Shown here: positions 11,386 through 64,000 of the stretch, in pieces
Numbering within the stretch: position 1 is the first letter of the stretch
Layout of the letters: every line of letters begins with the position of its first letter
From: Gemmatimonadales bacterium
Lineage (GTDB): Bacteria > Gemmatimonadota > Gemmatimonadetes > Gemmatimonadales > GWC2-71-9
Direction of reading: 5' to 3'
Assembly: GCA_036558125.1 (NCBI GenBank)
Contig: DATBGE010000108.1
Location: 30,813-94,812, forward strand
DNA: 64,000 nt
Position numbers and translations under genes: made by a program
Notes under the pieces: model-generated
What the model saw: only the letters and a program-made list of their open reading frames with translations
What the model was told of the DNA's origin: nothing
Database searches by the model: none

Positions 11386-11601
11386 TCAGGGCCAGGCTTG
11401 CTCGCCATAGTGGTCGATCAGAGTGATGGCGTCTACGGGGCAGGCGCGAGCGGCGTCGAGGATGCGTTTATCCCTTGCTCCCTCCGGGTCGACCACGATG
11501 CAGAAGTCCTCATCATCCAGCGCAAACACCCCCGGCGCCATGGCAACGCACTCGCCGTTACTCTCGCAAAGCTCGCGGTTGATGATGATTTCGTAGGGCA
11601 T
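11386..11601 (-). CDS. ferredoxin (single-cluster type)
   Basis: MPYEIIINRELCESNGECVAMAPGVF...AARACPVDAI. Start taken at the ATG at 11601. Confidence 0.75.
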   Translation of the reverse strand: MPYEIIINRELCESNGECVAMAPGVFALDDEDFCIVVDPEGARDKRILDAARACPVDAITLIDHYGEQAWP

Positions 11602-11738
11602 TGGCTGGTCAGAAAGGCCGTTCGCCGTATGTGGGGGCAATTATAGGAAACAAGCTGGGAATCGGCCAGAGCCCGCCGAAACCACGAAGGACGGGCGGGC
11701 GTAGAAGTGGCGCCTCTTCAACCGCGGGCAGGCGAATC

Positions 11739-12695
11739 ATGGCTGAAGCCGTCGTTACAGTCGATCGGATCACCAAACGGTTCGCGGGGCACACTGCCGT
11801 GCGCGACCTGTCCTTGAGCATTCCTGCCGGCGGAATCTTCGGCCTGTTGGGTCCCAACGGGGCCGGGAAGAGTACCACCATCCGAATGATCCTCAATATC
11901 CTGGTCCCCGATTCCGGATCTGTCCGGCTATTCGGGGATCAGGTGGCCGCGCGCGATCTCTCGGCTCGGCTCGGGTACCTGCCGGAGGAGCGGGGACTTT
12001 ACCGGAAGATGCGGGTCCTCGACCAACTGGCCTTCCTGGGGGAAATCCGTGGCCTGCGGCGCCTCGACAGCGTGCGTCGCGCGCGCACCTGGCTCGAGCG
12101 CCTGGGCTTGGGGGATTGGACCCGGAAAAAGGTCGAAGACCTGTCCAAAGGCATGCAGCAGAAAGTCCAGTTCATCGGCTCGCTGCTACACGACCCGGAA
12201 CTGGTCGTCCTCGATGAGCCGTTCAGCGGGCTCGATCCCGTCAACAGCCAGATCATGAAGGACGTGGTGGTCGAAATCGCCCGCGAGGGTCGCACCGTGC
12301 TCTTCTCCACCCACATTATGGAGCAGGCGGAACGGATGTGCGACAGGGTGGCTATCATCGCCCGGGGCGAGAAGGTTCTCGACGGAGCACTCAGCGAGGT
12401 AAAGCACGACTTCGGCACCCGGCATGTCGCACTGGTGTTCACCAGGAACCAGGCCAGCGCCGCGAAGATCCTTCGAGATCCGACACTGGTCGCCCGGGCC
12501 GATGACTATGGCGGGTCGGCCGAGGTTGAACTCCCGAGCGACGGGAACCCCGACCGGCTACTCCGGGCCCTGGTCGAGGCGGATGTTGGGCTGAGCCGGT
12601 TCGAAATCGTCGAGCCGTCCCTGCAATCCATCTTCATTGCCAAGGTCGGGGCGGAGGCCGCTGTGGCACCGGCCCGGGAGGAAGTCCATGCGTAA
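11739..12695 (+). CDS. ABC transporter ATP-binding protein (ABC-2/NatA-like)
   Basis: Walker A GPNGAGKST, signature LSKGMQQK, Walker B LVVLDEPFSGLD. ATG at 11739 (MAEAVVTVDRITKRF). Confidence 0.9.
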   Translation: MAEAVVTVDRITKRFAGHTAVRDLSLSIPAGGIFGLLGPNGAGKSTTIRMILNILVPDSGSVRLFGDQVAARDLSARLGYLPEERGLYRKMRVLDQLAFLGEIRGLRRLDSVRRARTWLERLGLGDWTRKKVEDLSKGMQQKVQFIGSLLHDPELVVLDEPFSGLDPVNSQIMKDVVVEIAREGRTVLFSTHIMEQAERMCDRVAIIARGEKVLDGALSEVKHDFGTRHVALVFTRNQASAAKILRDPTLVARADDYGGSAEVELPSDGNPDRLLRALVEADVGLSRFEIVEPSLQSIFIAKVGAEAAVAPAREEVHA

Positions 12696-14004
12696 GTTCC
12701 TCGCCGTCGTGACCCGGGAATTCCGGGAGCGGGTGCGCACCCGGGCCTTCGTGATCAGCACCGTATTGATCCCACTCTTCTTTACGCTGATGATCGCGGG
12801 CCAGATCATCCTCTCCACCCGGGGCGCCGGGACCTGGCGGATCGCCGTCGTGGATGCGGCCCAAGGGTCGTTCGGCGCGCGGGTCGAAGCGGCGCTTCGG
12901 GAGGTCAAGGTTGGAAGCGGCGCCGTCGCTCCTCAGAAATATCAGGTGGAGCGCATCAGCATCGCACCCGGTCGAATCGATGCGGTGAAGGACTCCCTGA
13001 TTCCTCTGATCGGGAAACGGGAGGAGGTCCCGGGGAAACTCGACGGGTTTCTCCTGGTGACCGAGGACGGACTCGCGTCGGGGGAGATTCCCTACTTTGG
13101 CGGCAATGTCGGGAGTCTCAGCGAAATGGATAACCTGCAGACCTCGCTTCGTCCCGTGGTGCTCACCGAGAGACTGGTACGTGAAGGCGTCGAACCCGAC
13201 GCTGTGCAGCAGGCCTCGGGCGGGGTAGAACTGGTAACCTCGAAGATTACCGACGGGAAGCTTACCGGGGAATCAGGAGAATCCTCGTTCTTTCTGGTGT
13301 ATGTCATGACGTTGATGATGTACTTCGCGCTGCTGTTCTACGGTATTCAGGTCATGAGCTCGGTGCTCGAAGAAAAGACCTCGCGTATTGTCGAGGTCCT
13401 CGCTTCGAGCGTAACCCCCTTTCAGCTGATGCTCGGCAAAGTCGTCGGGGTCGCCTCGGTTGGATTGTTCCAGCTCGGGATATGGGCCATGGCGGGATTG
13501 TACCTGACCGCCAATGTCGCGCCAATTCTCTCTATCCTGCACATGTCGAGTGATGCGGCAAAAGGCGTACAGCTCCCCACGGTCACCTTGCCGTTGTTGC
13601 TGGTCTTTCTCCTCTTCTTCGTACTGGGCTTTTTCCTCTTCTCCTCGATGTATGCTGCCGTCGGGGCCATGTGCAACAGCCAGCAGGATGCCAATCAGAC
13701 CCAGCATCCCGTCACCATCGGGATTGTGCTCGGGCTGATGACGATGTTCCCGCTGATGAATGATCCCAATAGCTCCCTGGCTCGCACGCTCAGCCTGATA
13801 CCGTTCACTGCTCCCTTTGCGACCCCAATCCGGTATTCTGTTTCGCCTTTGCCACTGCTGGAGCTCGTTCTGTCCATTCTCTCGACCATCGCCGGTGTGC
13901 TGATCATGTGCTGGATCGCTTCCCGGATCTATCGCATCGGCATTCTGGCCTACGGTAAGCGGCCCGGACTGGCAGAGCTCTGGAGGTGGGTGAGGACGGC
14001 GTAG
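12688..14004 (+). CDS. ABC-2 family transporter permease (NatB-like)
   Basis: 8-nt overlap with the ATPase. N-terminal TM, large periplasmic loop, then about 5 C-terminal TM helices. Confidence 0.8.
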   Translation: MRKFLAVVTREFRERVRTRAFVISTVLIPLFFTLMIAGQIILSTRGAGTWRIAVVDAAQGSFGARVEAALREVKVGSGAVAPQKYQVERISIAPGRIDAVKDSLIPLIGKREEVPGKLDGFLLVTEDGLASGEIPYFGGNVGSLSEMDNLQTSLRPVVLTERLVREGVEPDAVQQASGGVELVTSKITDGKLTGESGESSFFLVYVMTLMMYFALLFYGIQVMSSVLEEKTSRIVEVLASSVTPFQLMLGKVVGVASVGLFQLGIWAMAGLYLTANVAPILSILHMSSDAAKGVQLPTVTLPLLLVFLLFFVLGFFLFSSMYAAVGAMCNSQQDANQTQHPVTIGIVLGLMTMFPLMNDPNSSLARTLSLIPFTAPFATPIRYSVSPLPLLELVLSILSTIAGVLIMCWIASRIYRIGILAYGKRPGLAELWRWVRTA

Positions 14005-14007
14005 GGG

Positions 14008-14055
14008 CGGGAGAACGGGAGAACGGGTGAACGGGTGAACGGGAGAACGGGTGAG
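14008..14055 (+). repeat. tandem octamer array, 6 x CGGG[A/T]GAA
   Basis: Read directly from sequence. Starts 3 nt after the TAG stop at 14002..14004. Gives six GGG tracts spaced by 5 nt. Confidence 0.95.
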
Positions 14056-14087
14056 GGGGCGACCAGAACGGTCGCCCCTACTATTTT
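14056..14087 (+). terminator. rho-independent terminator
   Basis: GGGGCGACC-agaac-GGTCGCCCC (9-bp perfect stem) followed by TACTATTTT. Confidence 0.6.
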
Positions 14088-14094
14088 GGGGCCC

Positions 14095-15972
14095 ATGGAG
14101 CACTTCGATGTGATCGTGATCGGCGGCGGGCACGCCGGTGCCGAGGCGGCTAACGCCGCGGCTCGCCGCGGAGCGCGAACCCTGCTGTTGACCCAGAGTC
14201 TCGAGAGCATCGGTCAGATGTCCTGCAATCCGGCTATCGGGGGGATTGCGAAGGGCACCCTCGTCCGCGAGGTGGATGCGCTGGGGGGGATTATGGGGCG
14301 GGCGACCGACCTCGCCGCGATTCAGTATCGAATGCTGAACCGGTCGAAGGGACCTGCGGTGTGGTCTCCCAGGGCGCAGTGCGATCGTGGTCTCTATCGC
14401 CGTGCAGTGCGATCTCTGCTGGAGGCTCAGCCGAATCTCGAATTTCTTCAGGGCACTGTCGCGGACCTAAAGGTTCAGCGCGGAAGGGTTAGCGGGGTGG
14501 TCACCCGAGAGGGCCGGCTCCTCGAGGCGCAGTGCGTGATCCTCACCGCCGGGACCTTCCTGCGAGGCAGGATCCACCTCGGCTTGGACACACAGATTCC
14601 AGCTGGCCGCGCGGGAGACGCGCCGGCGGTGGAGATTGCAGAAGCGCTTGCGAGAGAAGGACTTACAATAGAACGCTTCAAGACTGGGACCCCTCCGCGG
14701 ATTGATGGACGGAGCCTCGACCTTGGTCGCTTTCAGCGGCAGGACGGGGAGACCGAGCCCTACTGGTTCTCCTTCTTCGATCACCCGGGACGACTGCCCC
14801 AGCTCCCGTGTTATCTCGCGTGGGCAGGACCGGAACTCAAGCGCATTATCCAGGAGCACCTGCTCCAGTCGGCCCTATATGGCGGTGCCATCAGTGGGAG
14901 AGGCCCGCGCTACTGCCCATCGATCGAAGACAAGATCGTCAAGTTCCCCGATGCGGAGCGGCACCAGGTATTCCTCGAGCCAGAGGGACTGGAGACCTCG
15001 GAGCTATACGTGAACGGTCTCTCGACCTCGCTGCCTCCGCCGGTTCAAGAGAAGTTTCTGCGCTCGATCCCCGGACTCGAAGGGGTGCGCATGACCCGTC
15101 CCGGGTATGCGATCGAGTACGACTATTTCCCACCGACGCAACTCGACCCGACTCTCGAGGTGCGAGGGATCGGCGGACTCTTCTTCGCTGGGCAGATCAA
15201 CGGAACAACCGGCTACGAGGAGGCTGCCGCGCAGGGGATTGTCGCCGGAATCAATGCCGCCGGGACAGCGTTGGGGCTGGACTCCGTTATTCTGCGGCGT
15301 GACCAGGCCATGATCGGTGTCCTGATTGACGATCTGGTGAGCCGTGGGGTGGACGAACCCTACCGGATGTTCACCTCACGAGCGGAGTTTCGACTACTCC
15401 TACGCCAGGATAACGCCCTCAGGAGGCTATCCGAGCTCGGCAGAGGCTTGGGGCTCCTGACGGACGACGAGACGAAGGAGGCCACGACTCTTCTTGAGGA
15501 ACAGGAGAAAGCCCTCGCCTTTGCGATGGAAACGGCGCTTGCTCCACAGGCCGTTAACGATCTGCTGGCGGTGAATCAGTCGGCGCCCATTGAGGAGCCG
15601 GTGCGGCTGGCGACCTTGATCCGCCGCCCTGGTATTCATTACAGGGACCTTCTGAGGGGGGAGGTCGGGCTGGATTTCTCCGATTCTGCGCTCGAGTGGG
15701 CGGAGATCGAGTTGAAATACTCGGGTTATCTGGAGAGGGAGAGGGCCGGAGCGGTACGACTCGACCGTATGGAAGCGGTGGAGCTACCGTCCGACGCCCC
15801 GTACCGGAGCTTCAAGTCGCTTTCTTACGAATCCCGGGAAAAACTCAGCACTATCCGGCCGGGGACGCTGGCGCAGGCGGGCAGGATCCCTGGCGTCTCG
15901 CCGAGCGATCTCCAGAACCTGCTCATCGAACTCGCCAAGTGGCGCCGCAGCTCCGACCCCTGTTTCACGTGA
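14095..15972 (+). CDS. mnmG: tRNA uridine-5-carboxymethylaminomethyl(34) synthesis enzyme MnmG (GidA)
   Basis: FDVIVIGGGHAGAEAA FAD motif, GPRYCPSIEDK, FFAGQINGTTGYEEAAAQG. ATG at 14095. Confidence 0.95.
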   Translation: MEHFDVIVIGGGHAGAEAANAAARRGARTLLLTQSLESIGQMSCNPAIGGIAKGTLVREVDALGGIMGRATDLAAIQYRMLNRSKGPAVWSPRAQCDRGLYRRAVRSLLEAQPNLEFLQGTVADLKVQRGRVSGVVTREGRLLEAQCVILTAGTFLRGRIHLGLDTQIPAGRAGDAPAVEIAEALAREGLTIERFKTGTPPRIDGRSLDLGRFQRQDGETEPYWFSFFDHPGRLPQLPCYLAWAGPELKRIIQEHLLQSALYGGAISGRGPRYCPSIEDKIVKFPDAERHQVFLEPEGLETSELYVNGLSTSLPPPVQEKFLRSIPGLEGVRMTRPGYAIEYDYFPPTQLDPTLEVRGIGGLFFAGQINGTTGYEEAAAQGIVAGINAAGTALGLDSVILRRDQAMIGVLIDDLVSRGVDEPYRMFTSRAEFRLLLRQDNALRRLSELGRGLGLLTDDETKEATTLLEEQEKALAFAMETALAPQAVNDLLAVNQSAPIEEPVRLATLIRRPGIHYRDLLRGEVGLDFSDSALEWAEIELKYSGYLERERAGAVRLDRMEAVELPSDAPYRSFKSLSYESREKLSTIRPGTLAQAGRIPGVSPSDLQNLLIELAKWRRSSDPCFT

Positions 15973-15976
15973 AACT
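15961..15976. other. parS: parS centromere-like site (TGTTTCACGTGAAACT)
   Basis: 15/16 match to the TGTTNCACGTGAAACA consensus. Overlaps the mnmG stop codon. Confidence 0.85.
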
Positions 15977-16032
15977 CCCGCCCGATTAGGCGGAAAGCTC
16001 TAAGCCCAGCTCAAAACCGGCCCCAGTCTACC

Positions 16033-16048
16033 CGTTTCACGTGAAACG
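16033..16048. other. parS: parS centromere-like site (CGTTTCACGTGAAACG)
   Basis: Perfect 14-bp core palindrome GTTTCACGTGAAAC, 114 bp upstream of parA. Confidence 0.85.
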
Positions 16049-16161
16049 GAGCCCATTCCATTGCTGTTAGGGCATTTGGATCTATATTCTAACTGCCGCC
16101 GCAGTATTGTATTTCCGACAGATAAATGTAACTATCTGCAATCAAATCACTTACGAGATAA

Positions 16162-16974
16162 ATGGCAAGACTCATCGCGATCGCCAACCAGAAAGGCGGG
16201 GTGGGGAAGACGACCACCGCGGTGAATCTCGCTGCGTCCCTCGCCATCGCAGAGCGGAAGACTCTGCTCGTGGATGCCGATCCCCAGGGTAACGCGACGA
16301 GCGGGATGGGGATTCGCCGGGAAACCATTCGGTACGCCCTCTACGACGCCATCGTCGAGGGACGGCCGGCCGGAGACATCATCATCAATGATCCCGCGCT
16401 ACCCTACCTGGACATTCTGCCGGCGACACAGGATCTCGTCGGTGCCGAACTCGAGTTGGTGGATCGCCGGGAGCGCGAAACAGTCCTTCGCCGGGCACTC
16501 GCGCCGATCAAGGGCTCGTACGAATTCATTTTGATCGACTGCCCGCCTTCGTTGGGACTCATCACCCTCAACGTGCTGACCGCCGCCGACGGAGTCATCA
16601 TCCCGATTCAGTGTGAGTACTACGCGCTGGAGGGAATCTCGCAGTTGCTCAACACCATCAACCTGGTGCAACAGAATTTCAATCCCACTCTCGCGATCGA
16701 TGGTGTGCTGCTCACGATGTACGATTCTCGAATCAATCTCTGCCGCCAGGTGGCGGCCGATGCGAAGGAATACTTCGGCGCCAAGATGTTCCCGACGGTC
16801 ATCCCTCGTAACGTGCGACTGGCCGAGGCGCCGAGTTTCGGCAAACCGATCCTCATGTACGACATCCAATCGGTCGGCGCGAAGAGCTACCTCGCGACTG
16901 CGCAGGAACTGGTCCGCCGCACCGAAGCATTGTCACCGACGGAGAGTCCTGCACTGCGTGAGGTGAGCGAATGA
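16162..16974 (+). CDS. parA: chromosome partitioning ATPase ParA/Soj
   Basis: Deviant Walker A NQKGGVGKTT. Full-length ParA-like sequence. Confidence 0.9.
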   Translation: MARLIAIANQKGGVGKTTTAVNLAASLAIAERKTLLVDADPQGNATSGMGIRRETIRYALYDAIVEGRPAGDIIINDPALPYLDILPATQDLVGAELELVDRRERETVLRRALAPIKGSYEFILIDCPPSLGLITLNVLTAADGVIIPIQCEYYALEGISQLLNTINLVQQNFNPTLAIDGVLLTMYDSRINLCRQVAADAKEYFGAKMFPTVIPRNVRLAEAPSFGKPILMYDIQSVGAKSYLATAQELVRRTEALSPTESPALREVSE

Positions 16975-17846
16975 GCGAGACGAAGCGACTCGGCCGGGGG
17001 CTGGAAGCCCTGTTAGGACCGGTTGCTCGGCATCAGGCCGAGCCAGAGGGCGCGATGCAGGAACTGCCGGTCGATGCGATACGGCCCAATCCATATCAGC
17101 CGCGCATCAAGGTGGACGAGGCGGCGCTGCAGGAACTAGTCACGTCGATCCAGGCCTCGGGCCTCCTGCAGCCGGTGGTCGTACGGGCACATGCCGACGG
17201 GTATCAGCTCATTGCGGGAGAGCGTCGCTGGCGGGCGGTCCAACGGCTGGGCTGGCGGCGAATTCCCGCCGTGATCAGGGAAGCAGATGATCGCACACTT
17301 CTTACGCTTGCACTGGTCGAGAATCTGCAGCGCGACAATCTCTCTCCCGTCGAGACCGCCAGGAGTTACCAGCGTCTGATCGACGAATTCCAGGCTTCTC
17401 CAGCTGAAGTCGGAGAACTCGTAGGGAAAGACCGCTCCACCGTCGCCAACGCGCTCCGTCTGCTGCGGCTGCCGTCCGAGGTGCGGGAGATGCTCGAAGA
17501 CGGAAGGCTCTCGGAAGGCCACGCGAGGGCATTGCTCGGGGTGAGCGATACCACACACATGAGTCGCCTCGCGAAGGATGCTGCCGCGAATGGCTGGACG
17601 GTGCGCGACACCGAAAGCCGGGTGCGCGAGGGACGGACTCCCCGAAATTCTCGCCGGCCCACCGGACCTCAAGAGGCCTCGGCCGAGCATCGCCGGGTGG
17701 AAGATGCGTTGCGGAAACGACTCGGAACCGATGTTCGGGTGACCGCCCGGCGCAAAGGGAGAGGTCTCATCGCGCTCAGCTATTACTCGAACGACGATCT
17801 CGCCCGTCTGCTCGAACTGCTGCTGGGAAGACCCTTCGAGGGCTGA
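16971..17846 (+). CDS. parB: chromosome partitioning protein ParB/Spo0J
   Basis: RLGRGLEALL N-terminus, QPR...LIAGERRWRA ParB box, HTH region. ATGA overlap with parA. Confidence 0.9.
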   Translation: MSETKRLGRGLEALLGPVARHQAEPEGAMQELPVDAIRPNPYQPRIKVDEAALQELVTSIQASGLLQPVVVRAHADGYQLIAGERRWRAVQRLGWRRIPAVIREADDRTLLTLALVENLQRDNLSPVETARSYQRLIDEFQASPAEVGELVGKDRSTVANALRLLRLPSEVREMLEDGRLSEGHARALLGVSDTTHMSRLAKDAAANGWTVRDTESRVREGRTPRNSRRPTGPQEASAEHRRVEDALRKRLGTDVRVTARRKGRGLIALSYYSNDDLARLLELLLGRPFEG

Positions 17847-18638
17847 GTGCCTGCGCGCCGTTCTCTGACGATCATCCTCCAACCGGACGGCGCGCTCACC
17901 TCACGCACGATCCGGATTCCTCTCTGGGCCCTTCGCGCGCTCGCCATCGCCTGTGCAGTGGTCGGTACCGGCGTGATTCTCGCCGCGGCGTTCTATCTTC
18001 CCATCTTCCGCGCGGCCGCCAGGGTTCCCGGTCTGGAGAATGAGGTAGCCCGGCTGGAGACCGAGAACGGAAGGATCCGGGAGCTGGTCGCCGCTCTCGA
18101 TTCGGCGGAGCAGCGGTACTCCAAGATCCGTCAGATGCTGGGTGCCGACATCGTGCCCGACCCGGTTTCTCTATCGACGCCACTCCCGGTAGCGCCGGCT
18201 GTACGGGCCAGAATCCCGGAAACGCCAGTACGCTTCGAGACCGGAAGCAGCATCCCACGGCACTGGCCTCTCGATGATCCGGGATACGTTACTCGGGGGC
18301 AGGTCGGCACAGGTACCGTCGACGAGGCGCATCCCGGCCTTGACATTGCAGTACCGATGGGGACCATGGTGCGTGCGTCAGGCGGCGGGACCGTGCTGCG
18401 CACTGGGACGGATGCGGAGTACGGGACTTTCGTCCTCCTGCAACACCCCGAGGGGTACCAGTCCATGTACGGGCACCTGGACCGTGCTACGGTGCAAGCT
18501 GGACGGCCGGTGAGCGCCGGCGAGGTCATAGGGCTCTCCGGCAACAGCGGACGCTCCAGCGCACCTCACCTTCATTTCGAGATACGCCTCAACGGGCAGT
18601 CGCTCGATCCAACGACTTTGGTTAAGGAGGGAAGCTGA
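17847..18638 (+). CDS. M23 family metallopeptidase (LytM-like), membrane-anchored with coiled coil
   Basis: HPGLD (HxxxD) and PHLHFE (HxH) catalytic motifs are intact. N-terminal TM helix. Confidence 0.85.
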   Translation: MPARRSLTIILQPDGALTSRTIRIPLWALRALAIACAVVGTGVILAAAFYLPIFRAAARVPGLENEVARLETENGRIRELVAALDSAEQRYSKIRQMLGADIVPDPVSLSTPLPVAPAVRARIPETPVRFETGSSIPRHWPLDDPGYVTRGQVGTGTVDEAHPGLDIAVPMGTMVRASGGGTVLRTGTDAEYGTFVLLQHPEGYQSMYGHLDRATVQAGRPVSAGEVIGLSGNSGRSSAPHLHFEIRLNGQSLDPTTLVKEGS

Positions 18639-19096
18639 TGGCCATTTTCTCGGGGTCCTCGAGGCACGCATCCGACTCTACGGGCCGCCGTTACGAGAAT
18701 GCCGGCCTGACGATCATTGCTGCGGGCACCCTGGTAGTGGGTGACGTGGCAAGTGAGGGAGTGGTCAAGGTCGAGGGCGAGGTACGGGGCTCGGTTCGGG
18801 CCGCCGGACAGATCCTCATTGCGAAGGGTGGGGTCATCCACGGAGATGCCCTGACCCGCGAAGCTGTAATCGGGGGCGAAATCGAAGGTGCTGTACGGGC
18901 CGAAGAGCGAGTCGAAATCCAGAGCGGTGCAGTCGTGAACGGTGACATCATGACCCAGCGGATCCTGATCGCGGAGGGCGGCAAGGTGAACGGTCAGCTT
19001 TCGATGGCGGCCACTGATGTCCTGATGACGGATATCGGTCACGCTGGCGGTAGTGAAGCCGATAGAGCTCTCTCCAGTGATTCCCACAATCGTTGA
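18638..19096 (+). CDS. bactofilin family cytoskeletal protein
   Basis: Repetitive beta-helix pattern (VVGDVASEGVVKVEGEVRGSVRAAGQILIAKGGVIHGD...) typical of DUF583. Start overlaps the M23 stop. Confidence 0.85.
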   Translation: MAIFSGSSRHASDSTGRRYENAGLTIIAAGTLVVGDVASEGVVKVEGEVRGSVRAAGQILIAKGGVIHGDALTREAVIGGEIEGAVRAEERVEIQSGAVVNGDIMTQRILIAEGGKVNGQLSMAATDVLMTDIGHAGGSEADRALSSDSHNR

Positions 19097-19142
19097 TAAG
19101 TCCCTACTTTGTGTGGAAATCATTCCTGTTTCTTACTTTAGA

Positions 19143-37550: not shown

Positions 37551-38141
37551 CTAGGGAACCTGCTCACTGTTCAAGGCCAGGAGCCGCGCGCCCGCCTCGC
37601 CGATTTCGAGAGTAGAGACTCGTAGCCGATCGGCTGGGAACTCGAACGCTTTGTCGAGTGGAACCTCGAGCACATGGCAGAGGATTGCTCTGATGCTTCC
37701 CGCGTGGGCGACGACCACGACTTCTTCGGCCGGGTTGGTGAGGCACCGAGCGTACCAGTCACGGACCCGATCTGAAAGAACGCTGAACGACTCACCGCCG
37801 GGGACTCTTTCGGTTACCCAGCTTTCCATCCAGCGCTTGAGGCGCGCGTCGTCCCCGCGCTCGAGCGCATTCCAGAAGCGCCCATCCCATTCTCCGAAGT
37901 TCATTTCTCGAAGCCGGGCATCGATCGTCGGCGTAACGCCCCAACGTCGGCCGAGCGGATCGGCCGTCTCCCGAGCGCGACGGAGATCGCTGGACCAGAT
38001 ACACCCAGGAGCTCTCGGCCACGCCGCGACAAGTCGGCCGACGTGCTCGATGCCTTCGGGAGACAATGGAGCGTCGGTATGGCCCATCGCTCGCCCGTCG
38101 GCGTCGAGGGCGGGGCCGTGCCGCACCAGGTGAAGCTTCAA
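37551..38141 (-). CDS. histidine phosphatase family protein (PGAM/CobC-like)
   Basis: LVRHG catalytic RHG motif at the N-terminus and a downstream VVAHAG. Confidence 0.8.
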   Translation of the reverse strand: MKLHLVRHGPALDADGRAMGHTDAPLSPEGIEHVGRLVAAWPRAPGCIWSSDLRRARETADPLGRRWGVTPTIDARLREMNFGEWDGRFWNALERGDDARLKRWMESWVTERVPGGESFSVLSDRVRDWYARCLTNPAEEVVVVAHAGSIRAILCHVLEVPLDKAFEFPADRLRVSTLEIGEAGARLLALNSEQVP

Positions 38142-38995
38142 GCCGTGCTTTCGGTGGCGCTGCGCTGGCCCACGCCGGGATGTACCGGATTAGAGCCGCC
38201 CGACTCGCGAGCCCAGCGGAAGAAGATCACCCCGAAGGCAAACCAGAGTGGAAGGTCGCCGATGATCTTCATGGTGAGTCCCGCGATTTGCTGATCGGAA
38301 TGGGCGGGGAGGTCCATCGCGCGGGGTGCCAGTTCGTACACGCCGTAGAGCGGGTAATCGGCGAAGGTGAGGAAAGCCGCCGGGAGAATCGGCGGCAGGG
38401 TGGCTGCGAAGAGATATCCCATCTTCAAAGGGCGGGTAAGGCGGCCGATCGGCGGGGGCGCCATGATTGCCCACCAGAGCACGATTCCACCGAGGAACCA
38501 TGCCAGGTCGATGGCGAAGGCGCCGAGCTGCGAACCCATCAGTCCGTCTACCACATCCGGAATGTGAGTGCCGATCAGGATCGCGTTGAAAACCGCGAGA
38601 GCGATGAGTGGTCGGGCCAGAATCCGTAAGACCGGCCCCACGCGCGGCGACCGGGAGCCGCTGAGCATGGCCTCACTCGGAATGCCGGCCAGGAGCAGAG
38701 GCGGGGCGATGAGGCTCAGGAGGATGTAGCTGACGGTGTGGAAGCTGACCAGGTAGCCGGTCCCCAACGGACCAATTGGCCAGTCGAGTGCGAGCCAGAC
38801 GGTGAGGAGGCCGGCCGCAAAGAAATAGGCGGCTCGGCGGCTCGGCGGCTCGGCGGCTCGGCTTCGCAGGTCGGGGCCTCGGCGGATAACCAGGAAATAC
38901 AGAACGGCAAGAAGCGCGACGAACAGCCACACGCCGGGATAGGCCTTCCAGGCCCAGGTCCATGGCTGCCCGGTTGCCGAGCACCACCAGGTCAT
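38138..38995 (-). CDS. ctaG: cytochrome c oxidase assembly protein (caa3 CtaG family)
   Basis: Polytopic membrane protein with the FHTVSYILLSLIAPPLLLAGIP and VLWWAIMAPPP patterns typical of this family. Confidence 0.7.
   Translation of the reverse strand: MTWWCSATGQPWTWAWKAYPGVWLFVALLAVLYFLVIRRGPDLRSRAAEPPSRRAAYFFAAGLLTVWLALDWPIGPLGTGYLVSFHTVSYILLSLIAPPLLLAGIPSEAMLSGSRSPRVGPVLRILARPLIALAVFNAILIGTHIPDVVDGLMGSQLGAFAIDLAWFLGGIVLWWAIMAPPPIGRLTRPLKMGYLFAATLPPILPAAFLTFADYPLYGVYELAPRAMDLPAHSDQQIAGLTMKIIGDLPLWFAFGVIFFRWARESGGSNPVHPGVGQRSATESTA
38828..38862. repeat. tandem octamer GGCGGCTC x4 (plus a partial unit) inside the ctaG-like CDS
   Basis: Read directly from sequence. Encodes SRAAEPPSRRAA in the first loop of the protein. 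Confidence 0.9.
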
Positions 38996-48126: not shown

Positions 48127-48978
48127 TTACGCATTGGAGTCTATCCCGAGCTCGACTCCCAATACCTTGCGAGCGGCATATGCAACCAGGAGCAGCAGTC
48201 CGAACACGCAGACCACGACGGGCCCGGTAGGGAGGTCATACTGGAACGAGAGCCAAAGCCCGCCGGCCGAGCAGAGGACCCCGGCAACCCAGGACAGAGC
48301 TGACAGGGGACCGGTACGACGGGTGAACTGGAATGCGATGGCAGCCGGGACCACCAGGAATGAAAAAACCAGCAGGACCCCGACGATTGGGACCGAGAAA
48401 GTGATCACCAGCCCGAAGGAGAGGTAGAACAGGAAGTCCCAGAACTTGAGGTTCCAACCATTGGCGAGCGCTATTTCGGGTTCGAAGGATATGGTGAGGA
48501 ACCTGCGCCGCAGGATCCAGTGAAACAGCCCGACGAGGACGTAGACCAAAGCCAGCCGACCGATCGCGGGCCAGCCAACCCACAAGAGACTGCCCACCAG
48601 AATGTCCTTGATGGCTTCCCCGCCCCTTGGTGAGCGATCCGCCACGAGGATGCCGGCCGCCGAGGCGACGACAAACACGATTCCGATGATCGCCTCCTGG
48701 GGCACCCGCCCATGTCGGCCGGTGCGAGTCAGGGCGAACAGCGCGGCACCCAGAGTCGTGAAGCCGAGCGCGGAGGCAAAACTGCGGGTCGAATCGGGAT
48801 CTGCACCGGCGAAGATGGCGATGGTCGATCCCAACGCGGCCATCTGCGCCAGCGAGAGATCTACGAAAATGACCTCGCGGGCGATCACATGGAGACCGAG
48901 GTAGGAATGGATCGCCACGATCACCATGCAGGCTACCAGCGGAGCAAGCCACAGGCTGTGTACCAGCTGGTCGATCAT
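48127..48978 (-). CDS. metal ABC transporter permease (ZnuB/TroC-like)
   Basis: ATG at 48978 (MIDQLVHSLWLAPLVA...) overlaps the SBP stop (TGATG). About 8 TM helices typical of the ABC-3 family. The upstream part of the 49302 ORF is a shadow of the SBP gene. Confidence 0.85.
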   Translation of the reverse strand: MIDQLVHSLWLAPLVACMVIVAIHSYLGLHVIAREVIFVDLSLAQMAALGSTIAIFAGADPDSTRSFASALGFTTLGAALFALTRTGRHGRVPQEAIIGIVFVVASAAGILVADRSPRGGEAIKDILVGSLLWVGWPAIGRLALVYVLVGLFHWILRRRFLTISFEPEIALANGWNLKFWDFLFYLSFGLVITFSVPIVGVLLVFSFLVVPAAIAFQFTRRTGPLSALSWVAGVLCSAGGLWLSFQYDLPTGPVVVCVFGLLLLVAYAARKVLGVELGIDSNA

Positions 48979-50102
48979 CAGGCGCCTCCTCCTGTGAAGC
49001 CCGCGGCGAGACTGGAGATCCAGGTATTCATGAGATCGAAGTAGGTCTCGACACCCGGGGCCCCATGGGTGTTCTCCGGAACGATCACTGCCTTCGCGCC
49101 GGTCTTGGCTGCCACCTCTCCGATTTGGTTGCGATTGAAATAGTTGGACGCAAAGAGCACCGGAATCTTCCGCTCCTTCATCAGCGCGATCACTTCTTCC
49201 ACGTGCTTCGGCGTCGGTGGGATCCCCGGCTTCGCTTCGATGAAGGTGGCGCAGACCACCTTGAACCGGTTGCTGAAATAGGCCCATTCCTTGTGGTAGC
49301 ATGCCATTTCCCGTCCGCGGAAGACCTCACCCTGCTTGAGCCACCCTCCCAGATGATCGGAGAGCGGCTTGCCTTGGTATTTCGTGCGACCGATGAAGTC
49401 GAACAGCTTGTCGGTCTTGAGCAGGTCGAACGCGGTCGCGGGAGTGAGAATGCCGACCAGCTCCTGCCCCATGGTGGCCTCGAGAATCCGCTTCTCGAAG
49501 TCCTTTTCGCGATCCGTGAAGTAACTGGCATCTCCCGGGGAGACCCGGGTCAGACCGGTCATGATATTCCGCGCGATGATGATCGCGTTCAGTGGATCGG
49601 TGTGAATGTGGGGATTGCCGTCGGCGTGAATATCTCCCTGCGCCCGATTCAGACTGGTGGGGACCTCCAGCAGCGTGATGCCGGTATAGGCGGTGACGTA
49701 CCCGGGCCCGCCCTCGGACACCTTCCGGTTGTTGGCTCGGTCGAGCAGCGCCGGGACCCAAAGCTCCAAATCGAGTCCGGTCGTCACGAACAGATCCGCG
49801 TCGCGCAGGACCGCCACGAAGCTCGGCTTGGGCTGCACGAAGTGAGGATCCTCGTCGCCCTGGGCGATCGAAGTTATCGTGCCGCGATCGCCAGCAATCT
49901 CCCGCGCGATCGCCCCATAGGTCGTCAGGCTGGTGACGATCTTGAGCGGTGCGGTCCTTAAGGACTCCCTCGCTCCCGACTCGCGCTGTCGCGCTCCTGA
50001 GGGTCGCTCGGTCGCGACTCGGCGGCTCGGCGGCTCGGCGGCATGATGACTGGGCGGCTCGGCGAACAGCCCGGAAGCGATGGTGAGGAGAGCGAGAATC
50101 AT
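48978..50102 (-). CDS. metal ABC transporter substrate-binding protein (ZnuA/TroA cluster-9 family)
   Basis: LKIVTSLTTYGAIAREI...DPHFVQPKPS...DIHADGNPHIHTDP His-rich metal-site pattern. Confidence 0.85.
   Translation of the reverse strand: MILALLTIASGLFAEPPSHHAAEPPSRRVATERPSGARQRESGARESLRTAPLKIVTSLTTYGAIAREIAGDRGTITSIAQGDEDPHFVQPKPSFVAVLRDADLFVTTGLDLELWVPALLDRANNRKVSEGGPGYVTAYTGITLLEVPTSLNRAQGDIHADGNPHIHTDPLNAIIIARNIMTGLTRVSPGDASYFTDREKDFEKRILEATMGQELVGILTPATAFDLLKTDKLFDFIGRTKYQGKPLSDHLGGWLKQGEVFRGREMACYHKEWAYFSNRFKVVCATFIEAKPGIPPTPKHVEEVIALMKERKIPVLFASNYFNRNQIGEVAAKTGAKAVIVPENTHGAPGVETYFDLMNTWISSLAAGFTGGGA
50021..50064. repeat. octamer GGCGGCTC copies (2.5 tandem plus 1.5 more after a 12-nt gap) inside the SBP CDS
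   Basis: Read directly from sequence. Encodes AEPPSHHAAEPPSRR just after the signal peptide. Same unit as in ctaG. Confidence 0.9.
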
Positions 50103-51464
50103 TTAGTAGGTCTCGTGCTTGTGGGGGCCCATGGCGAACACCGCCTGGAGCAGAACCCGGTTGTCGGTGCCGTTGACGCTGTCGTGGTGGTGCTGGCCTT
50201 CCAGTCGGAGATACACGAACTCACTCTCCCACCAGGTGATGGCAGGTGTTATTCCCCATTCATTCGTATCGGGACCCCGCGGTGTTTCGACGTAGTCGTA
50301 CCGGGCGCCCAGGATCCAGCGCTGGCTGACCCGGAATGCCGCGTCGACAAAGGCGCCGTAGCGGGTCTGGGCCAGGCCCGCCTCTTTCGAGTGGAACTGG
50401 TAGCCTTCGGCTCTCAGGGTGAGATCCTGCCGGGTCCCGGCGTTGGGCGGACGCCAGGTCAGCCGGGCATCCAGGCCCAGCACTCGGCTGGTGAGAGCGC
50501 TGTCGGAATTGTCTCCCCCGAGTGCGGTGAAGCCGATCTGGCCGTAGGTGCTGCGGCTCAGCTGCCAGAAGTTCTGCAGCCGGCCCAGAAGGGTGGTGTG
50601 CCGGTCGGTCCCGAAGAGCGGATCGCTCTCGACCGACGTCGCCTGGGCCCAGATCTCGTGAGTGCCGTGCACCAGCGAAACGGGGAGCGTGGTGTAAAGG
50701 GAGAGTCCTACACCCGACAGGCCGTCGTCGCCGAAAAACCGGCGATAGACCAGGGGGTACTCAGACTCGGGAAGGGCGTGGAGGTGCCAGCGATTGAGAT
50801 CACCGACCTGCTGCCGATAGAGTCCTACGTCGGCTCGAATCCGCCCGGGAAGACCGGTCCAGTAGAGATAGCCTTCCTCTACGCCGACCTCTTCATTCTC
50901 GAAGGTCAGGAAGACCTTTGCGGTCGAGTAGGGGTCCAAGGTGGACTGGAGGCCTACCTCAAATTCGCGAGCCTGCGCGTCGAAATGTTCAGACCCATCC
51001 TGCCCGACCAGGCGGATGTCGCCTGTGGCGCTGATCTCCGGATTCAGGGCTGAGCCGCTGCGCTGGCGCCCGACAAATTCGGTGCGACCGGCCGCCGCAG
51101 TGTCAACCGGCGCCCCAACCGGCCGGCCGGCGGCAGAGTCAGCCGCGGCGCGCAATGCTGCCAGATCGTCGCCAGCCGTGTCCGGTGCGGCTCCCAGGCA
51201 TCGCTGGGCAACCAGCTTCTCCACTCGCTGATTCAGCCGATCGAGCGCAGTGGCCAGGCTGTCCGCAGCCGGCTCACCGGTCGGATGAGCAGGCAGTCGA
51301 ACCGCTGGCCCCGCGGGGCAAAGGCCCGCTTCCAGAGTATCCAGTCGCGCATTCAACGCGTGGACTGCACTCAGGGCGGAATCGGGTACCTGTGCGCTGG
51401 CGATCTGTCCACCGGTGAACAGGAGGACGAACAGGAGGACCGCACAGTGGGAGCGGTCTGTCAT
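50103..51464 (-). CDS. putative outer-membrane beta-barrel porin with N-terminal coiled-coil region
   Basis: Signal peptide from the ATG at 51464, heptad-like segments (LNARLDTLEAG, LDRLNQRVEKL), an NPEISATGD motif, alternating beta pattern and a terminal aromatic (...HKHETY). Confidence 0.6.
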   Translation of the reverse strand: MTDRSHCAVLLFVLLFTGGQIASAQVPDSALSAVHALNARLDTLEAGLCPAGPAVRLPAHPTGEPAADSLATALDRLNQRVEKLVAQRCLGAAPDTAGDDLAALRAAADSAAGRPVGAPVDTAAAGRTEFVGRQRSGSALNPEISATGDIRLVGQDGSEHFDAQAREFEVGLQSTLDPYSTAKVFLTFENEEVGVEEGYLYWTGLPGRIRADVGLYRQQVGDLNRWHLHALPESEYPLVYRRFFGDDGLSGVGLSLYTTLPVSLVHGTHEIWAQATSVESDPLFGTDRHTTLLGRLQNFWQLSRSTYGQIGFTALGGDNSDSALTSRVLGLDARLTWRPPNAGTRQDLTLRAEGYQFHSKEAGLAQTRYGAFVDAAFRVSQRWILGARYDYVETPRGPDTNEWGITPAITWWESEFVYLRLEGQHHHDSVNGTDNRVLLQAVFAMGPHKHETY

Positions 51465-51538
51465 AGAACTCCAGAGCAAAGCCCGGCTGAGGAAGGCCGT
51501 GACCGGACTGGTTAATCAGTTGTCGAGAGCTGAGCTGA

Positions 51539-51880
51539 TCAGGCGAGATACGACGGCGGTGCTCGAGGAAGGACTGAAGTGTGAACTGGCGCGGAGAGCA
51601 GGTGAGGATTGTTGCGTGCGATGATCGCGACTCCGACGGGCATCTCGGCGTGGGTCTGCGGAGAGCTCGCTACGAGCACACGACCGCCTCGAAGTTGATC
51701 GGCCTGCGGACATTGGACTGCATGGCCGCCGCTGCTCGTCGCTTCGAGCCGGACCTCGAGCGCCGTGGCCGCACCCCGTCCGTGGAACATCACGGCGTCG
51801 GCCCCCGGGAGGATGACTCCTCCGAAGAGGCCCACCAGTAAGAGCGCGAGCGCCGGCAGGCGACGACGGAAGGAATGCAT
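51539..51880 (-). CDS. small membrane-anchored His/Cys-motif protein, paralog 3 (leader gene of the porin-ZnuAB module)
   Basis: TM helix + LPGADAVMFHG, GGHAVQC, C-terminal PRAPPSYLA. Confidence 0.55.
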   Translation of the reverse strand: MHSFRRRLPALALLLVGLFGGVILPGADAVMFHGRGAATALEVRLEATSSGGHAVQCPQADQLRGGRVLVASSPQTHAEMPVGVAIIARNNPHLLSAPVHTSVLPRAPPSYLA

Positions 51881-51921
51881 CGGGATCGAACCTAGAAGGG
51901 TGGCGGGATCGCGTCTAGTCG

Positions 51922-51958
51922 AAAAAACGGAAAGGGCGGCTTGACCGACGCCGTTTTT
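51922..51958. terminator. terminator-shaped hairpin with flanking A6/T5 tracts
   Basis: AAAAACGG ... CCGTTTTT outer stem with an inner GGCG/CGCC pairing. It lies in a divergent intergenic region, so its role is unclear. Confidence 0.3.
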
Positions 51959-51970
51959 CTCGTATCTTCA

Positions 51971-51982
51971 ATGTATATACAT
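51971..51982. promoter_or_regulatory. perfect palindrome ATGTATATACAT, candidate mazEF operator / -10 region
   Basis: 12-bp perfect palindrome 14 bp upstream of the mazE ATG. Confidence 0.35.
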
Positions 51983-51995
51983 CAGAGTTAATCAG

Positions 51996-52549: not shown

Positions 52550-52552
52550 AAA

Positions 52553-52622
52553 TGGCGGGATGGCGGGATGGCGGGATGGCGGAATGGCGGAATGGCGGAA
52601 TGACGAGAGACGAGAGACGAGG
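52553..52622 (+). repeat. compound tandem array: 3 x TGGCGGGA, 3 x TGGCGGAA, 3 x GACGAG[AG]
   Basis: Read directly from sequence. Starts 4 nt after the mazF TAA stop. Confidence 0.95.
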
Positions 52623-52651
52623 AGATTGCTGATGTTCAGGAGTGAGGCCCG

Positions 52652-58386: not shown

Positions 58387-58390
58387 GGTC

Positions 58391-58509: not shown

Positions 58510-58514
58510 CCCCA

Positions 58515-59216: not shown

Positions 59217-59233
59217 GGTGAAATCTAGTAATA

Positions 59234-59309: not shown

Positions 59310-59318
59310 TTTTCATAC

Positions 59319-61217
59319 ATGACGTTCCCCGGTGGTCCCGCCAGTCTCCGGCCCCGCCGCCCGCCCAAGCTCATCCAGGAAGCACCGACTTGGCGGGAAC
59401 GGATGCGGGCTACTCGCCACCTGCCTGAATTTTTCCGGCTGGTCTGGGAGACCAATCGCGGTTACAGCGTTCTCATCGTGCTGCTCCGCGCACTCCGGGC
59501 GGCGATTCCGATCGCCACTCTCTGGATCGGGAAGCTCATCATCGATGAAGTAGTGCGGCTATTGGGCGAGCCGGGAGCCGCGGCGTCAGGCCTCGAGGCC
59601 TACAGGCATCTGCTGCTGCTCGTGGCCGTCGAGTTCGGCATCGCAACCGTGGGCGAACTCCTGGCGCGGGCATCCTCCCTGCTGGAGAGCCTGCTGGGCG
59701 ACCTGTTCGCCAATCGCACCAGCGTTCAATTGATGCAGCACGCGGCGTCCCTCGATCTCCAGCAGCTGGAAGATGCCGAGGTCTACGACAAGCTGGAGCG
59801 GGCTCGGCGGCAGACGGTGGGACGGATCGGGCTCTTCACGGGAATTCTCGCCAGCCTGCAGGATTTGATCACGATGGTCTCGCTGGCGATTGCGATCACG
59901 GTCTACGTTCCCTGGTTGCTGTTGCTCCTTGCCTTGGCGGTCCTCCCCTCCTTTCTGGGCGAAACACGCTACGCCGCACTCGGCTACTCGCTGCTGTTCT
60001 CCTGGACTCAGGAGCGGCGCCAGCTCGATTACCTGCGGTACATCGGTGCGAGCGATGTCTCCGCCAAAGAAGTGAAACTGTTCGGCCTCTCCGATTACCT
60101 GGTGGGACAGTATGCCCAGCTCTCGGACGAGTTCTACGAAGCCAACCGCGATCTCGCGATTCGACGCGCGGTGGTTTCCTCCCTGCTCGCTCTGGTCGGG
60201 TCGGTCGGGTACTACGGCGCCTATGTCGCCATCATCTATCTCACAGTAACCCGCCATCAGTCGCCCGCCGGTCCCTTTACCCTGGGCGTCCTGACTTTCC
60301 TGGCCGCCTCCTTCCGGCAAAGCCGAGACCTGATCCAGCGCTTTCTGTTGTCCCTGGCCCAGCTGTTCGAGCAGGCGCTCTACCTCGAGGATCTGTTCAC
60401 CTTCTTCGATCTGCAGCCGCGGATCTCCAGCACGCCCGGTGCGGCGGTGGTGCCGACGCCCATTCGGGAGGGTTTTCAGTTCGAGAATGTCGGGTTCCGC
60501 TACCCTGGCGCTGAACGGTGGGCGGTCCGGGGGCTCGACTTCGTGCTCAAGCCGGGCGAGCGGCTGGCCTTGGTGGGAGAGAACGGTGCGGGCAAGACCA
60601 CGCTCGCCAAACTCCTCGCTCGACTCTACGACCCCAGCGAAGGACGCATCCTGCTAGATGGTCGAGATCTGCGGGAATACGACATCGAGAGCCTGCGCCG
60701 CAATGTCGGCGTGATTTTCCAGGATTTTGTGCGCTACGACTTTCCCATCAGGGAGAATATCGCTGTGGGCGACATCGGCCGGCGGGACGACCAACCGGCG
60801 CTCGAGGTGGCGGCGAGCCGAAGTCTGGCCGACAGCGTGATCGCCCGCTTCAAGGAAGGCTATGAGCAATTACTGGGGAAGCGGTTTGAGGGTGGGGCCG
60901 ATCTCTCGGGGGGCGAATGGCAGAAACTGGCTCTGGCCCGGGCCTACCTGCGAGATGCCCAGCTCCTGATTCTCGACGAGCCCACCGCCGCCCTCGATGC
61001 GCGCGCCGAGTACCAGGTCTTCCTCCGCTTTTCCGAGCTGACCCACGGGCGCATGGCGGTGCTGATCAGCCACCGTTTCAGCACGGTTCGCATGGCCGAC
61101 CGTATTCTGGTGCTCAAGGAGGGTGAGCTGGTGGAGCAGGGGACCCACGCGGAGCTGCTGGACAACAAGGGACTTTACTCGGAGTTGTTCGGGCTGCAGG
61201 CGGCGGGGTATAGGTAG
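59319..61217 (+). CDS. ABC transporter ATP-binding protein/permease (fused exporter, MsbA-like)
   Basis: Six-TM N-terminal domain. GENGAGKTT, LSGGEWQK, LLILDEPTAALD. Confidence 0.9.
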   Translation: MTFPGGPASLRPRRPPKLIQEAPTWRERMRATRHLPEFFRLVWETNRGYSVLIVLLRALRAAIPIATLWIGKLIIDEVVRLLGEPGAAASGLEAYRHLLLLVAVEFGIATVGELLARASSLLESLLGDLFANRTSVQLMQHAASLDLQQLEDAEVYDKLERARRQTVGRIGLFTGILASLQDLITMVSLAIAITVYVPWLLLLLALAVLPSFLGETRYAALGYSLLFSWTQERRQLDYLRYIGASDVSAKEVKLFGLSDYLVGQYAQLSDEFYEANRDLAIRRAVVSSLLALVGSVGYYGAYVAIIYLTVTRHQSPAGPFTLGVLTFLAASFRQSRDLIQRFLLSLAQLFEQALYLEDLFTFFDLQPRISSTPGAAVVPTPIREGFQFENVGFRYPGAERWAVRGLDFVLKPGERLALVGENGAGKTTLAKLLARLYDPSEGRILLDGRDLREYDIESLRRNVGVIFQDFVRYDFPIRENIAVGDIGRRDDQPALEVAASRSLADSVIARFKEGYEQLLGKRFEGGADLSGGEWQKLALARAYLRDAQLLILDEPTAALDARAEYQVFLRFSELTHGRMAVLISHRFSTVRMADRILVLKEGELVEQGTHAELLDNKGLYSELFGLQAAGYR

Positions 61218-61297
61218 CGGGAGACGGGAGACGGGAGACGGGAGGACGGGGGAACGGGGGAACGGGGAACGGGGAACAGGGAACAGGGAACAGGGAA
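61218..61297 (+). repeat. drifting tandem 7-8-mer array: CGGGAGA x3, CGGGAGGA, CGGGGGAA x2, CGGGGAA x2, CAGGGAA x3
   Basis: Read directly from sequence. Begins at the nucleotide after the TAG stop (61215..61217). Confidence 0.95.
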
Positions 61298-63925: not shown

Positions 63926-63926
63926 A

Positions 63927-64000
63927 ACGGGAGACAGGAGACGGGAGACGGGAGATGGGAGACGGGAGACGGTGAACGGTGAACGGTGAACGGTGAACGG
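63927..64000 (+). repeat. tandem heptamer array: ACGGGAG-type x6, then ACGGTGA x4+, running off the window
   Basis: Read directly from sequence. Starts 1 nt after the TGA stop (63923..63925). Confidence 0.95.

Follow-up and report, generated by a model that had tools for sequence, protein, structure and literature searches.

A polymorphic G-rich octanucleotide repeat between a permease stop codon and a terminator-like hairpin in a Gemmatimonadales bacterium

We analyzed a 64,000-nt stretch of DNA from a Gemmatimonadales bacterium (contig DATBGE010000108.1, positions 30,813 to 94,812), from here on referred to as the window, in which a G-rich array of six octamers lies between the stop codon of a gene for an ABC-2 family transporter permease and the gene mnmG (gidA). 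This array is probably a hypermutable, G-rich octanucleotide variable-number tandem repeat in the spacer that separates the permease stop codon from a terminator-like hairpin conserved independently of it, and it is one ordinary example of a repeat class that has already been described in other bacteria. The array differs in length between near-identical contigs. Contig L133, from the Joint Genome Institute (JGI) metagenome 3300037153, encodes an identical permease and matches window positions 2688-23996 with 99.92% identity, differing by nine mismatches and one gap in 21,317 nt. This sole gap is one additional CGGGTGAA unit in the array, giving seven units compared with the six in the window. 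A preliminary description of the locus had regarded this and similar arrays as functional rather than random microsatellites, a distinction against which the polymorphic copy number speaks. Further, in contig L130 of the same metagenome, which matches window positions 50261-53269, the sole length difference is three more units in an ATGGCGG array that starts at position 52550. In a third contig, which encodes an identical EF-G protein, the intergenic region upstream of EF-G is 620 nt long compared with 656 nt in the window (36 nt shorter, a comparison of lengths only), and this variable 656-nt region contains an array that starts at position 61218 as well as a pair of inverted arrays. The near-identical contigs were found via the permease, the Fer2 protein, and the short-chain dehydrogenase (SDR); an exact-protein look-up with MnmG gave no match. 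We also note that some contigs start or stop inside arrays (positions 1-30 of L131 and loci such as L043, L045, L046, and L054), and arrays of this kind therefore break up short-read assemblies, such that their number in metagenome-assembled genomes is probably underestimated.

The permease gene (12688..14004, + strand; Pfam ABC2_membrane_3, E 9e-32) starts at the ATG at position 12688 according to the gene call in L133, where its product has 438 amino acids, and its stop codon TAG (14002-14004) forms the 5' anchor of the array. The C-terminal codons of the permease are kept in nine metagenome relatives. The stop codon is followed by GGG (14005..14007, + strand), which constitutes a seventh G-tract, and then, 3 nt past the stop codon, by the array itself (14008..14055, + strand), a G-rich, C-poor, and T-poor microsatellite with the unit CGGG[A/T]GA[A/G]. 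The units are arranged head to tail in the order CGGGAGAA twice, CGGGTGAA twice, CGGGAGAA, and CGGGTGAG. The layout, number, and distance from the stop codon of six CGGG[A/T]GAA units were thus given correctly in the preliminary description, apart from the sixth unit, which has a terminal G instead of A. Tandem Repeats Finder assigned the array a period of 8, with 5.5 copies and 94% matches, and a pattern of three such units occurred five times in the window and not once in 100 dinucleotide-preserving shuffles of it. Over 50 nt, the composition of the array is 54% G, 28% A, 12% C, and 6% T.

A terminator scan and RNA folding both revealed a GC-rich hairpin (GGGGGCGACC / GGTCGCCCCT, loop AGAAC; 14055..14079, + strand), which begins at the last nucleotide of the array. 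The hairpin has a stem of 10 pairs, 8 of which are G-C, and a loop of 5 nt, passes the thresholds of the terminator scan, and dominates the predicted RNA fold; directly 3' of it lies the T-rich tail ACTATTTTGG (14080..14089, + strand). Judged by its sequence, the segment at 14055-14089 is a putative intrinsic (Rho-independent) terminator, in that, past the end of a gene, a GC stem-loop runs directly into a U-rich tract. The stem, at 10 bp and conserved in relatives, bears out the terminator of the preliminary description, for which the word canonical was slightly generous, the T-tract being interrupted. The gene mnmG (14095..15972, + strand; Pfam GIDA, E 2e-156; also called in L133) starts at ATG 14095, 15 nt past the T-rich tail, with the GIDA domain beginning at residue 5. 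A promoter scan of positions 13000-15000 found no σ70-like promoter on the + strand. Given this short distance and the lack of a promoter in the scan, transcription of mnmG would either continue from that of the transporter operon by read-through or begin at the conserved TACTAT/TATTTT within the tail and give a near-leaderless mRNA; the tail may also serve as a -10-like element for mnmG.

Two other identities for the array were considered and rejected. Open reading frames (ORFs) overlap it on both strands, namely 14035..15972 with a GTG start and 13273..14133 on the minus strand, but the array is non-coding, since the GIDA domain starts at residue 5 counted from ATG 14095, this ATG is kept in the relatives, and the gene call in L133 agrees with it. 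A CRISPR array was dismissed, as the units are 8 nt long and run head to tail with no spacers, whereas CRISPR repeats of 23-50 nt alternate with unique spacers. Rfam covariance models gave no match at the gathering threshold in the whole window and none at E<=1 in positions 13900-14200.

To see how the site fares over longer distances, we turn to nine related metagenome contigs, in which the permease is 71-96% identical at the protein level and 80-87% at the nucleotide level; eight of the nine extend past the permease stop codon, and the close relatives are soil metagenome contigs. All eight have the permease followed by mnmG, as well as the T-rich tail. The hairpin is retained in six of the seven distinct related sequences, with CTATTTTG invariant; among these seven sequences we detected no double-sided compensatory pairs, and the case for the hairpin is thus one of conservation and not of covariation. 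The spacer between the stop codon and the hairpin is 34-56 nt long in the relatives and unalignable. In three lineages, a short heptamer array (GGGGAAC, 3.4-3.9 copies) is present directly past the stop codon and persists at ~86% nucleotide identity, and the remaining relatives contain decayed, repeat-like spacer sequence. Inserting a single A into GGGGAAC yields the unit GGGAGAAC, and, among the relatives compared, the clean octamer is restricted to the lineage of the window. The composition of the spacer across the relatives ranges from 38 to 54% G and from 28 to 30% A (67-82% purines), with 2-8% T as opposed to 18.5% T genome-wide.

The focal array contains a canonical G-quadruplex (G4) motif (four G3 tracts joined by N1-7, here with GGG-N5 spacing) with a G4Hunter score of 1.26, and RNAfold, with G-quadruplexes enabled, predicts a G4 in its first tracts. 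The description of the sense strand as G4-capable therefore agrees with these predictions; the array at 61218 has a G4Hunter score of 1.58. Nevertheless, predicted G4 capacity is not conserved at the permease-mnmG locus, because, of the seven related spacers, four (L125, L126, L127, and L128) have no canonical motif and a predicted fold without a G4. With the unit, period, and sequence also turning over in the relatives, the 3'-end functional element that had been suggested for the site (acting in stabilization, termination enhancement, ribosome release, or protein binding) is not well supported here.

The focal array is not alone in the window. All four of its G-rich arrays are intergenic and start 0-3 nt past a stop codon on the same strand, with a period of 8 at the focal array and of 7-8 at its sisters. 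The first sister array (52550..52625, + strand), which the preliminary description did not list, consists of (G/A)ATGGCGG in 6.5 copies followed by GACGAGA in three, and its start lies 1 nt past the TAA stop codon of the gene for a PemK toxin. The next (61218..61297, + strand) consists of CGGGAGA in four copies, CGGGGGAA in two, CGGGGAA in two, and CAGGGAA in three, and starts 0 nt after the TAG of an ORF (59319..61217) with an ABC transporter ATPase domain (Pfam ABC_tran). The last (63926..64000, + strand) has ACGGGAG-type units followed by ACGGTGA in 4.6 copies, starts 0-1 nt after the TGA of an EF-G-like gene, and is cut by the window end. The latter two had been reported (as 61218..61297 and 63927..64000) to begin 0-1 nt past plus-strand stop codons, and this is as described. 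Cumulative GC skew climbs monotonically across the window, and the orientations of replication and transcription are inseparable here, with all four G-rich arrays on the + strand and cumulative GC skew positive. A sliding scan of the window for G-rich, C-poor sequence was too unspecific for use.

Several features adjoin the sister arrays. A MazE/AbrB-type antitoxin and PemK toxin pair (51997-52549; Pfam and genes of L130) lies directly upstream of the array at 52550; a 2Fe-2S / molybdopterin dehydrogenase operon comes next, and the gap before it is mostly taken up by the array. The EF-G-like gene ends in repeat-like, G/A-rich codons (63890-63925; …KRDGKENGDE*), and its TGA stop codon lies within CGAGTGA, which resembles a degenerate CGGGTGA unit; the stop codon in locus L026 is likewise inside a degenerate unit. 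The C-terminal tail of the EF-G-like protein may be derived from the array.

The same placement recurs in other genomes. One pattern scan, for three CGGGWGA(N) units in a row in species-representative genomes, returned at least 120 stretches, the source genome not being among the matches listed; the loci from other genomes comprised 8 kb each, and the placement statistics that follow refer to the matches listed. These stretches are from phyla including Gemmatimonadota, Acidobacteriota, Actinomycetota, Pseudomonadota, Bacteroidota, Chloroflexota, and Verrucomicrobiota, as well as Planctomycetota, Latescibacterota, Spirochaetota, Armatimonadota, Myxococcota, and Cyanobacteria. One locus among the matches listed, L037 from a Thermoanaerobaculia metagenome-assembled genome, is 71% identical at the nucleotide level to window positions 53267-55595 (2.3 kb). 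The arrays were oriented with the G-rich strand up, and an ORF of at least 100 codons was taken to abut an array when its end fell within -12 to +10 nt of the 5' end of the array. Among the pattern-selected arrays with enough flanking sequence, a same-strand ORF end abutted the array in 31 of 101 cases, compared with 6 of 101 for the mirror arrangement (p 4e-5), and in eight more of the 101 the ORF end lay further inside the array; units bearing TGA can terminate ORFs that enter them, which inflates the negative-distance class, and pattern-selected arrays without TGA in their first units gave seven abutting cases and none in the mirror arrangement. The same loci contained 166 other arrays of 6-9-nt units with diverse sequences (109 heptamers, 40 octamers, 13 hexamers, and 4 nonamers). 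Those that had a G/C skew, which were not selected by the pattern, abutted a sense stop codon in 35 of 84 cases and followed the mirror arrangement in 5 of 84 (p 1e-6).

We also compared distances, with neighboring genes assigned by stop-free flanks rich in GC at the third codon position. The distance from a sense stop codon to the 5' end of the array had a median of 3 nt (<=10 nt in 38 of 65 cases), whereas the distance from the stop codon of an antisense gene to the 3' end of the array had a median of 56 nt (<=10 nt in 5 of 43; Fisher p 8e-7 for sense versus antisense). The coding strand of the flanks alone displayed only a modest sense bias (sense on both sides in 31 cases versus antisense on both sides in 23; left neighbor sense in 65 and antisense in 55). 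The strong placement signal is thus the distance to the stop codon and not a simple strand count. The recurrent sense-strand placement after stop codons noted in the preliminary description is borne out by all four arrays of the window and, with strong statistics, by the at least 120 loci in many phyla. Nine of ten abutting ORFs tested encode full-length Pfam-domain proteins, with domains reaching the C terminus and with unrelated housekeeping functions (carboxyl transferase, PTPS, γ-glutamyltranspeptidase, Obg, MMPL transporter, histidine kinase, and others). Further, many of the arrays that obey the placement rule have no GGG tract in their unit, e.g. GATTTTG, GGTACGAA, and AGATGATG.

Two further ideas were tried on these loci and rejected. 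The combination of array and terminator is not a general module, because a stem of at least 7 bp within 70 nt downstream was found for 21 of 100 arrays compared with 18-28 of 101 random positions; about half of the hairpins that do occur downstream start <=10 nt from the end of the array. A "treadmill," in which arrays would expand from their 5' ends while their 3' ends decay, was discarded, the in-register similarity of flanking unit-length segments being ~0.3 on both sides.

Heterocystous cyanobacteria contain many intergenic tandem heptamer arrays (STRR), with several unit families per genome and an unexplained function, and the analogy to these repeats drawn in the preliminary description is reasonable; the STRR differ from the focal array in their unit sequences and host lineage, and the focal array is octameric. 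Heptanucleotides of this kind in Calothrix PCC 7601 are cited by Rehm et al. (2015, PLoS One; PMC4692102), whose own quadruplex-forming heptameric simple sequence repeats (SSRs), GGGAATC in Xanthomonas and GGGGA(C/T)T in Nostoc, are a closer precedent and display the same stop-codon polarity. The latter repeats lie within 50 bp past a stop codon, with the G-rich strand being the coding strand. The ORF located 5' of the G-rich strand is nearer to them than the downstream ORF is, in either orientation of the latter; arrays on the non-coding strand also occur, at most 50 bp ahead of an ORF (PMC4692102). They adjoin genes of all functional classes, vary in length at the same site between close relatives, and fold into G4 in vitro in a K+-dependent manner, and their function is unresolved (PMC4692102). 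The arrays of the window have in common with them the head-to-tail units with G-tracts, the intergenic location, the occurrence of inverted versions, and the unrelated housekeeping neighbors, and the focal site shares the stop-codon polarity and the same-site variation in repeat number and sequence. The differences concern the unit, CGGG[A/T]GA(A), the period of 8 (7-8 at the sister arrays), and the host, which appears to be a soil bacterium; further, G4 formation is only predicted here. The class of Rehm et al. is over-represented genome-wide in non-coding DNA and prefers four units; in the 64 kb analyzed here, all four G-rich arrays are intergenic, and our own pattern demanded at least three units. 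Overall, we conclude that the present arrays match every positional and dynamic feature of that class that we examined and differ from it in unit, period, and host.

More broadly, the long SSRs of prokaryotes (units of at least 5 nt), described by Mrazek and co-workers as cited in PMC4692102 and by Huang and Mrazek (2014; PMC4060949), display an excess of heptamers, are intergenic, occur in large GC-rich genomes of non-pathogens, and are attributed to replication slippage. The order of periods in our loci (7 far ahead of 8, followed by 6 and then 9) is similar; stop-codon and strand polarity and the CGGG[A/T]GA(A) unit family are not described in those surveys. MacGregor (2015; PMC4679880) proposed a post-transcriptional binding role for the TAACTGA direct repeats found in Beggiatoaceae, cyanobacteria, and Bacteroidetes. 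These repeats are likewise abundant intergenic heptamers in distant phyla but are a more distant analogue, in that they precede start codons by a few nucleotides, consist of A/T-rich sequence, and share a single fixed unit.

We interpret the focal array as follows. Replication slippage would create, resize, and re-homogenize the array, in keeping with the copy-number polymorphism observed, and the array would belong to a dense population of intergenic repeats with 7- and 8-nt units, present both in this genome and in many phyla of soil and aquatic habitats. These repeats have one polarity rule in common, namely that the G-rich strand has its 5' end where the neighboring ORF stops. The array itself would supply only a purine-rich, C- and U-poor, G4-capable spacer of variable length in the 3'-untranslated region (3'-UTR), its sequence being under no detectable conservation, and termination would be brought about by the hairpin and not by the array. 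The placement bias most likely has two causes: the spacer may be the only part of a compact transcription unit where a slip of 7-8 nt is harmless, and a transcription-linked bias, or weak selection for G-rich over C-rich untranslated RNA, may act in addition. Some observations weigh against this interpretation. The G/A-rich, T-poor character of the spacer is retained in all relatives down to 80% nucleotide identity, and pure neutral decay might be expected to erase both the purine-rich spacer and the heptamer array. Further, array starts peak 0-3 nt past stop codons with a 5-7-fold excess over the mirror arrangement, for which tolerance alone is no explanation, and three genes in the window have arrays of one unit family.

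A bolder proposal, in which we have limited confidence and which we regard as doubtful, is that stop-anchored, G-skewed arrays of 7-8-nt units are either a selected 3'-UTR module that spans phyla or a universal footprint of repeat expansion tied to R-loops and to the uncoupling of transcription and translation. If the module version were true, a purine-rich, C/U-poor, Rho-resistant, and G4-capable stretch would be maintained where ribosomes leave the mRNA; the unit sequence would drift and position, strand, and composition would be kept, as fits the focal site across ~20% nucleotide divergence. On its own, the focal locus offers little beyond a polymorphic 3'-UTR microsatellite and a convenient marker for strain typing. 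Viewed with the other loci, the polarity described in 2015 for two genera extends to unrelated units in many phyla, with measurable slippage between near-identical strains, and the question is sharpened to why G-rich 7-8-nt repeats accumulate exactly where translation ends, with selection on 3'-UTR RNA, avoidance of Rho or R-loops, and mutational bias as candidate answers.

As candidate explanations for the peak of array starts 0-3 nt past the stop codon, for the G-rich strand being the sense strand, and for the purine-rich character that this site has retained through ~20% divergence, we place a mutational bias linked to transcription and R-loops first, followed by G4 function, multivalent binding, Rho acting on antisense RNA, and phase variation. 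Under the mutational hypothesis, G-rich, C-poor RNA that is free of ribosomes past the stop codon, where transcription and translation uncouple, would evade Rho and form R-loops, and R-loops with a C-rich template would stall replication and provoke slippage, such that arrays would grow non-adaptively at the end of translation. This would cover both the abutment to the stop codon (median of 3 nt) and the strand polarity and would fit diverse units that share only a skew of G over C, as well as fast turnover at a persistent site. The scheme is, however, entirely inferential; many arrays do not lie behind a same-strand gene (left neighbor sense in 65 versus antisense in 55), the arrays on the non-coding strand within 50 bp upstream of ORFs (PMC4692102) are not obviously explained by it, and we consider it quite unlikely. 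A function of the array as a 3'-UTR element through a G4 in RNA, in DNA, or in a hybrid involving the non-template strand, we regard as unlikely. Such a G4 might shield the 3' end against exonucleases, or it might retard RNA polymerase and thereby improve termination at the hairpin. It would be favored by the seven canonical G3N5 tracts, the G4Hunter score of 1.26, the G4 in the minimum free energy structure of RNAfold -g, the sense-strand placement at stop codons in many phyla, the G-rich spacer in all permease-mnmG relatives, and G4 formation in vitro by related repeats (PMC4692102). However, four of the seven related spacers have neither a canonical motif nor a G4 in the predicted fold, many arrays obey the placement rule with units that lack GGG (GATTTTG, GGTACGAA, and AGATGATG), the sister array AATGGCGG has only three GGG tracts, and hairpins are not enriched downstream of arrays. 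Guo and Bartel (2016) reportedly found RNA G4s to be generally depleted in bacterial transcripts, and this too counts against a G4 function.

The array could conceivably act as a multivalent binding platform, on which GGGAG, GGGUGA, or GGAUG motifs would bind a protein (CsrA-like, cold-shock, or S1-type) or the anti-Shine-Dalgarno tail and so hold post-termination ribosomes or titrate a regulator. Units containing GGA resemble CsrA sites, and pairing with a generic anti-Shine-Dalgarno tail, which may not be that of the host, is predicted at -7.4 to -8.8 kcal/mol; for the TAACTGA repeats, binding partners of a comparable kind have been put forward (PMC4679880). Yet the arrays that obey the rule have unrelated units, the unit changes between close relatives (GGGGAAC versus GGGAGAAC), and no gene for a binding protein turned up in the window, where no search was made for one; we therefore find this proposal very unlikely. 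Even less credible to us is an antisense shield, in which the opposite strand, (TTCTCCCG)n, being C-rich, G-poor, and rut-like, would allow Rho to end antisense transcripts entering the permease gene, the array lying just past a hairpin that has no U-tract in the antisense direction. An antisense transcript would indeed have ~54% C and 12% G over 50 nt, and the T-tract of the hairpin would serve the + strand only; against this, there is no convergent gene downstream, mnmG being co-directional, 50 nt is short for a rut site, and the proposal is pure inference. The least probable of the five is a phase-variation switch, in which copy number would alter regulatory spacing and thereby toggle mnmG or the transporter. 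The polymorphic copy number agrees with it, as does the position of mnmG 15 nt past the T-rich tail, so that its expression depends on upstream sequence. However, a phase-variable contingency SSR either lies within a coding sequence or separates promoter elements of a surface or adaptive gene, such that unit changes switch expression. The focal array does neither: it lies outside any ORF, between a stop codon and a hairpin, with no σ70-like promoter flanking it on the + strand, and the genes next to arrays are diverse and housekeeping, as in Rehm et al. (PMC4692102).

Apart from these arrays, we made several minor observations in the window. Downstream of mnmG (window positions 14095-19100; L133 positions 11416-16417) are parA, parB, an M23 peptidase gene, and a bactofilin gene, and this mnmG-parA-parB-M23-bactofilin cluster is of the origin-proximal type. 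Inverted pairs of arrays occur at three places. Between the stop codon of the SDR gene (58515) and the start of the next minus-strand gene (58387), an array of (GAGTCTG)~7 and an inverted, CAGACTC-like array of ~6.6 units (58388-58512) form one long tandem-repeat hairpin (-77.7 kcal/mol, z = -8.3), which is identical in contig L132, a 100% match. A second inverted pair, GTACCGC / ACTCGGT (59228-59314; -36.3 kcal/mol, z -3.6), is located where the SDR gene and the ORF at 59319..61217 diverge, and a third, GGGTCTA / AGACCTT (61695-61812; -52.4 kcal/mol, z -3.1), lies upstream of the EF-G-like gene. Structures composed of an array, a loop, and the inverse array are also present in other phyla (e.g. 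L040, L066, L103, and L118). Finally, the octamer GAGCCGCC (coding strand) is repeated within two minus-strand ORFs, 4.4 times at 38828-38862 (ORF 38138..38995) and ~6 times at 50014-50064 (ORF 48978..50102), where the repeats encode AAEPPSRR-like stretches, one after a signal peptide-like N terminus and the other in a membrane protein. Because gain or loss of an 8-nt unit would shift the reading frame, these GAGCCGCC repeats could be contingency loci.

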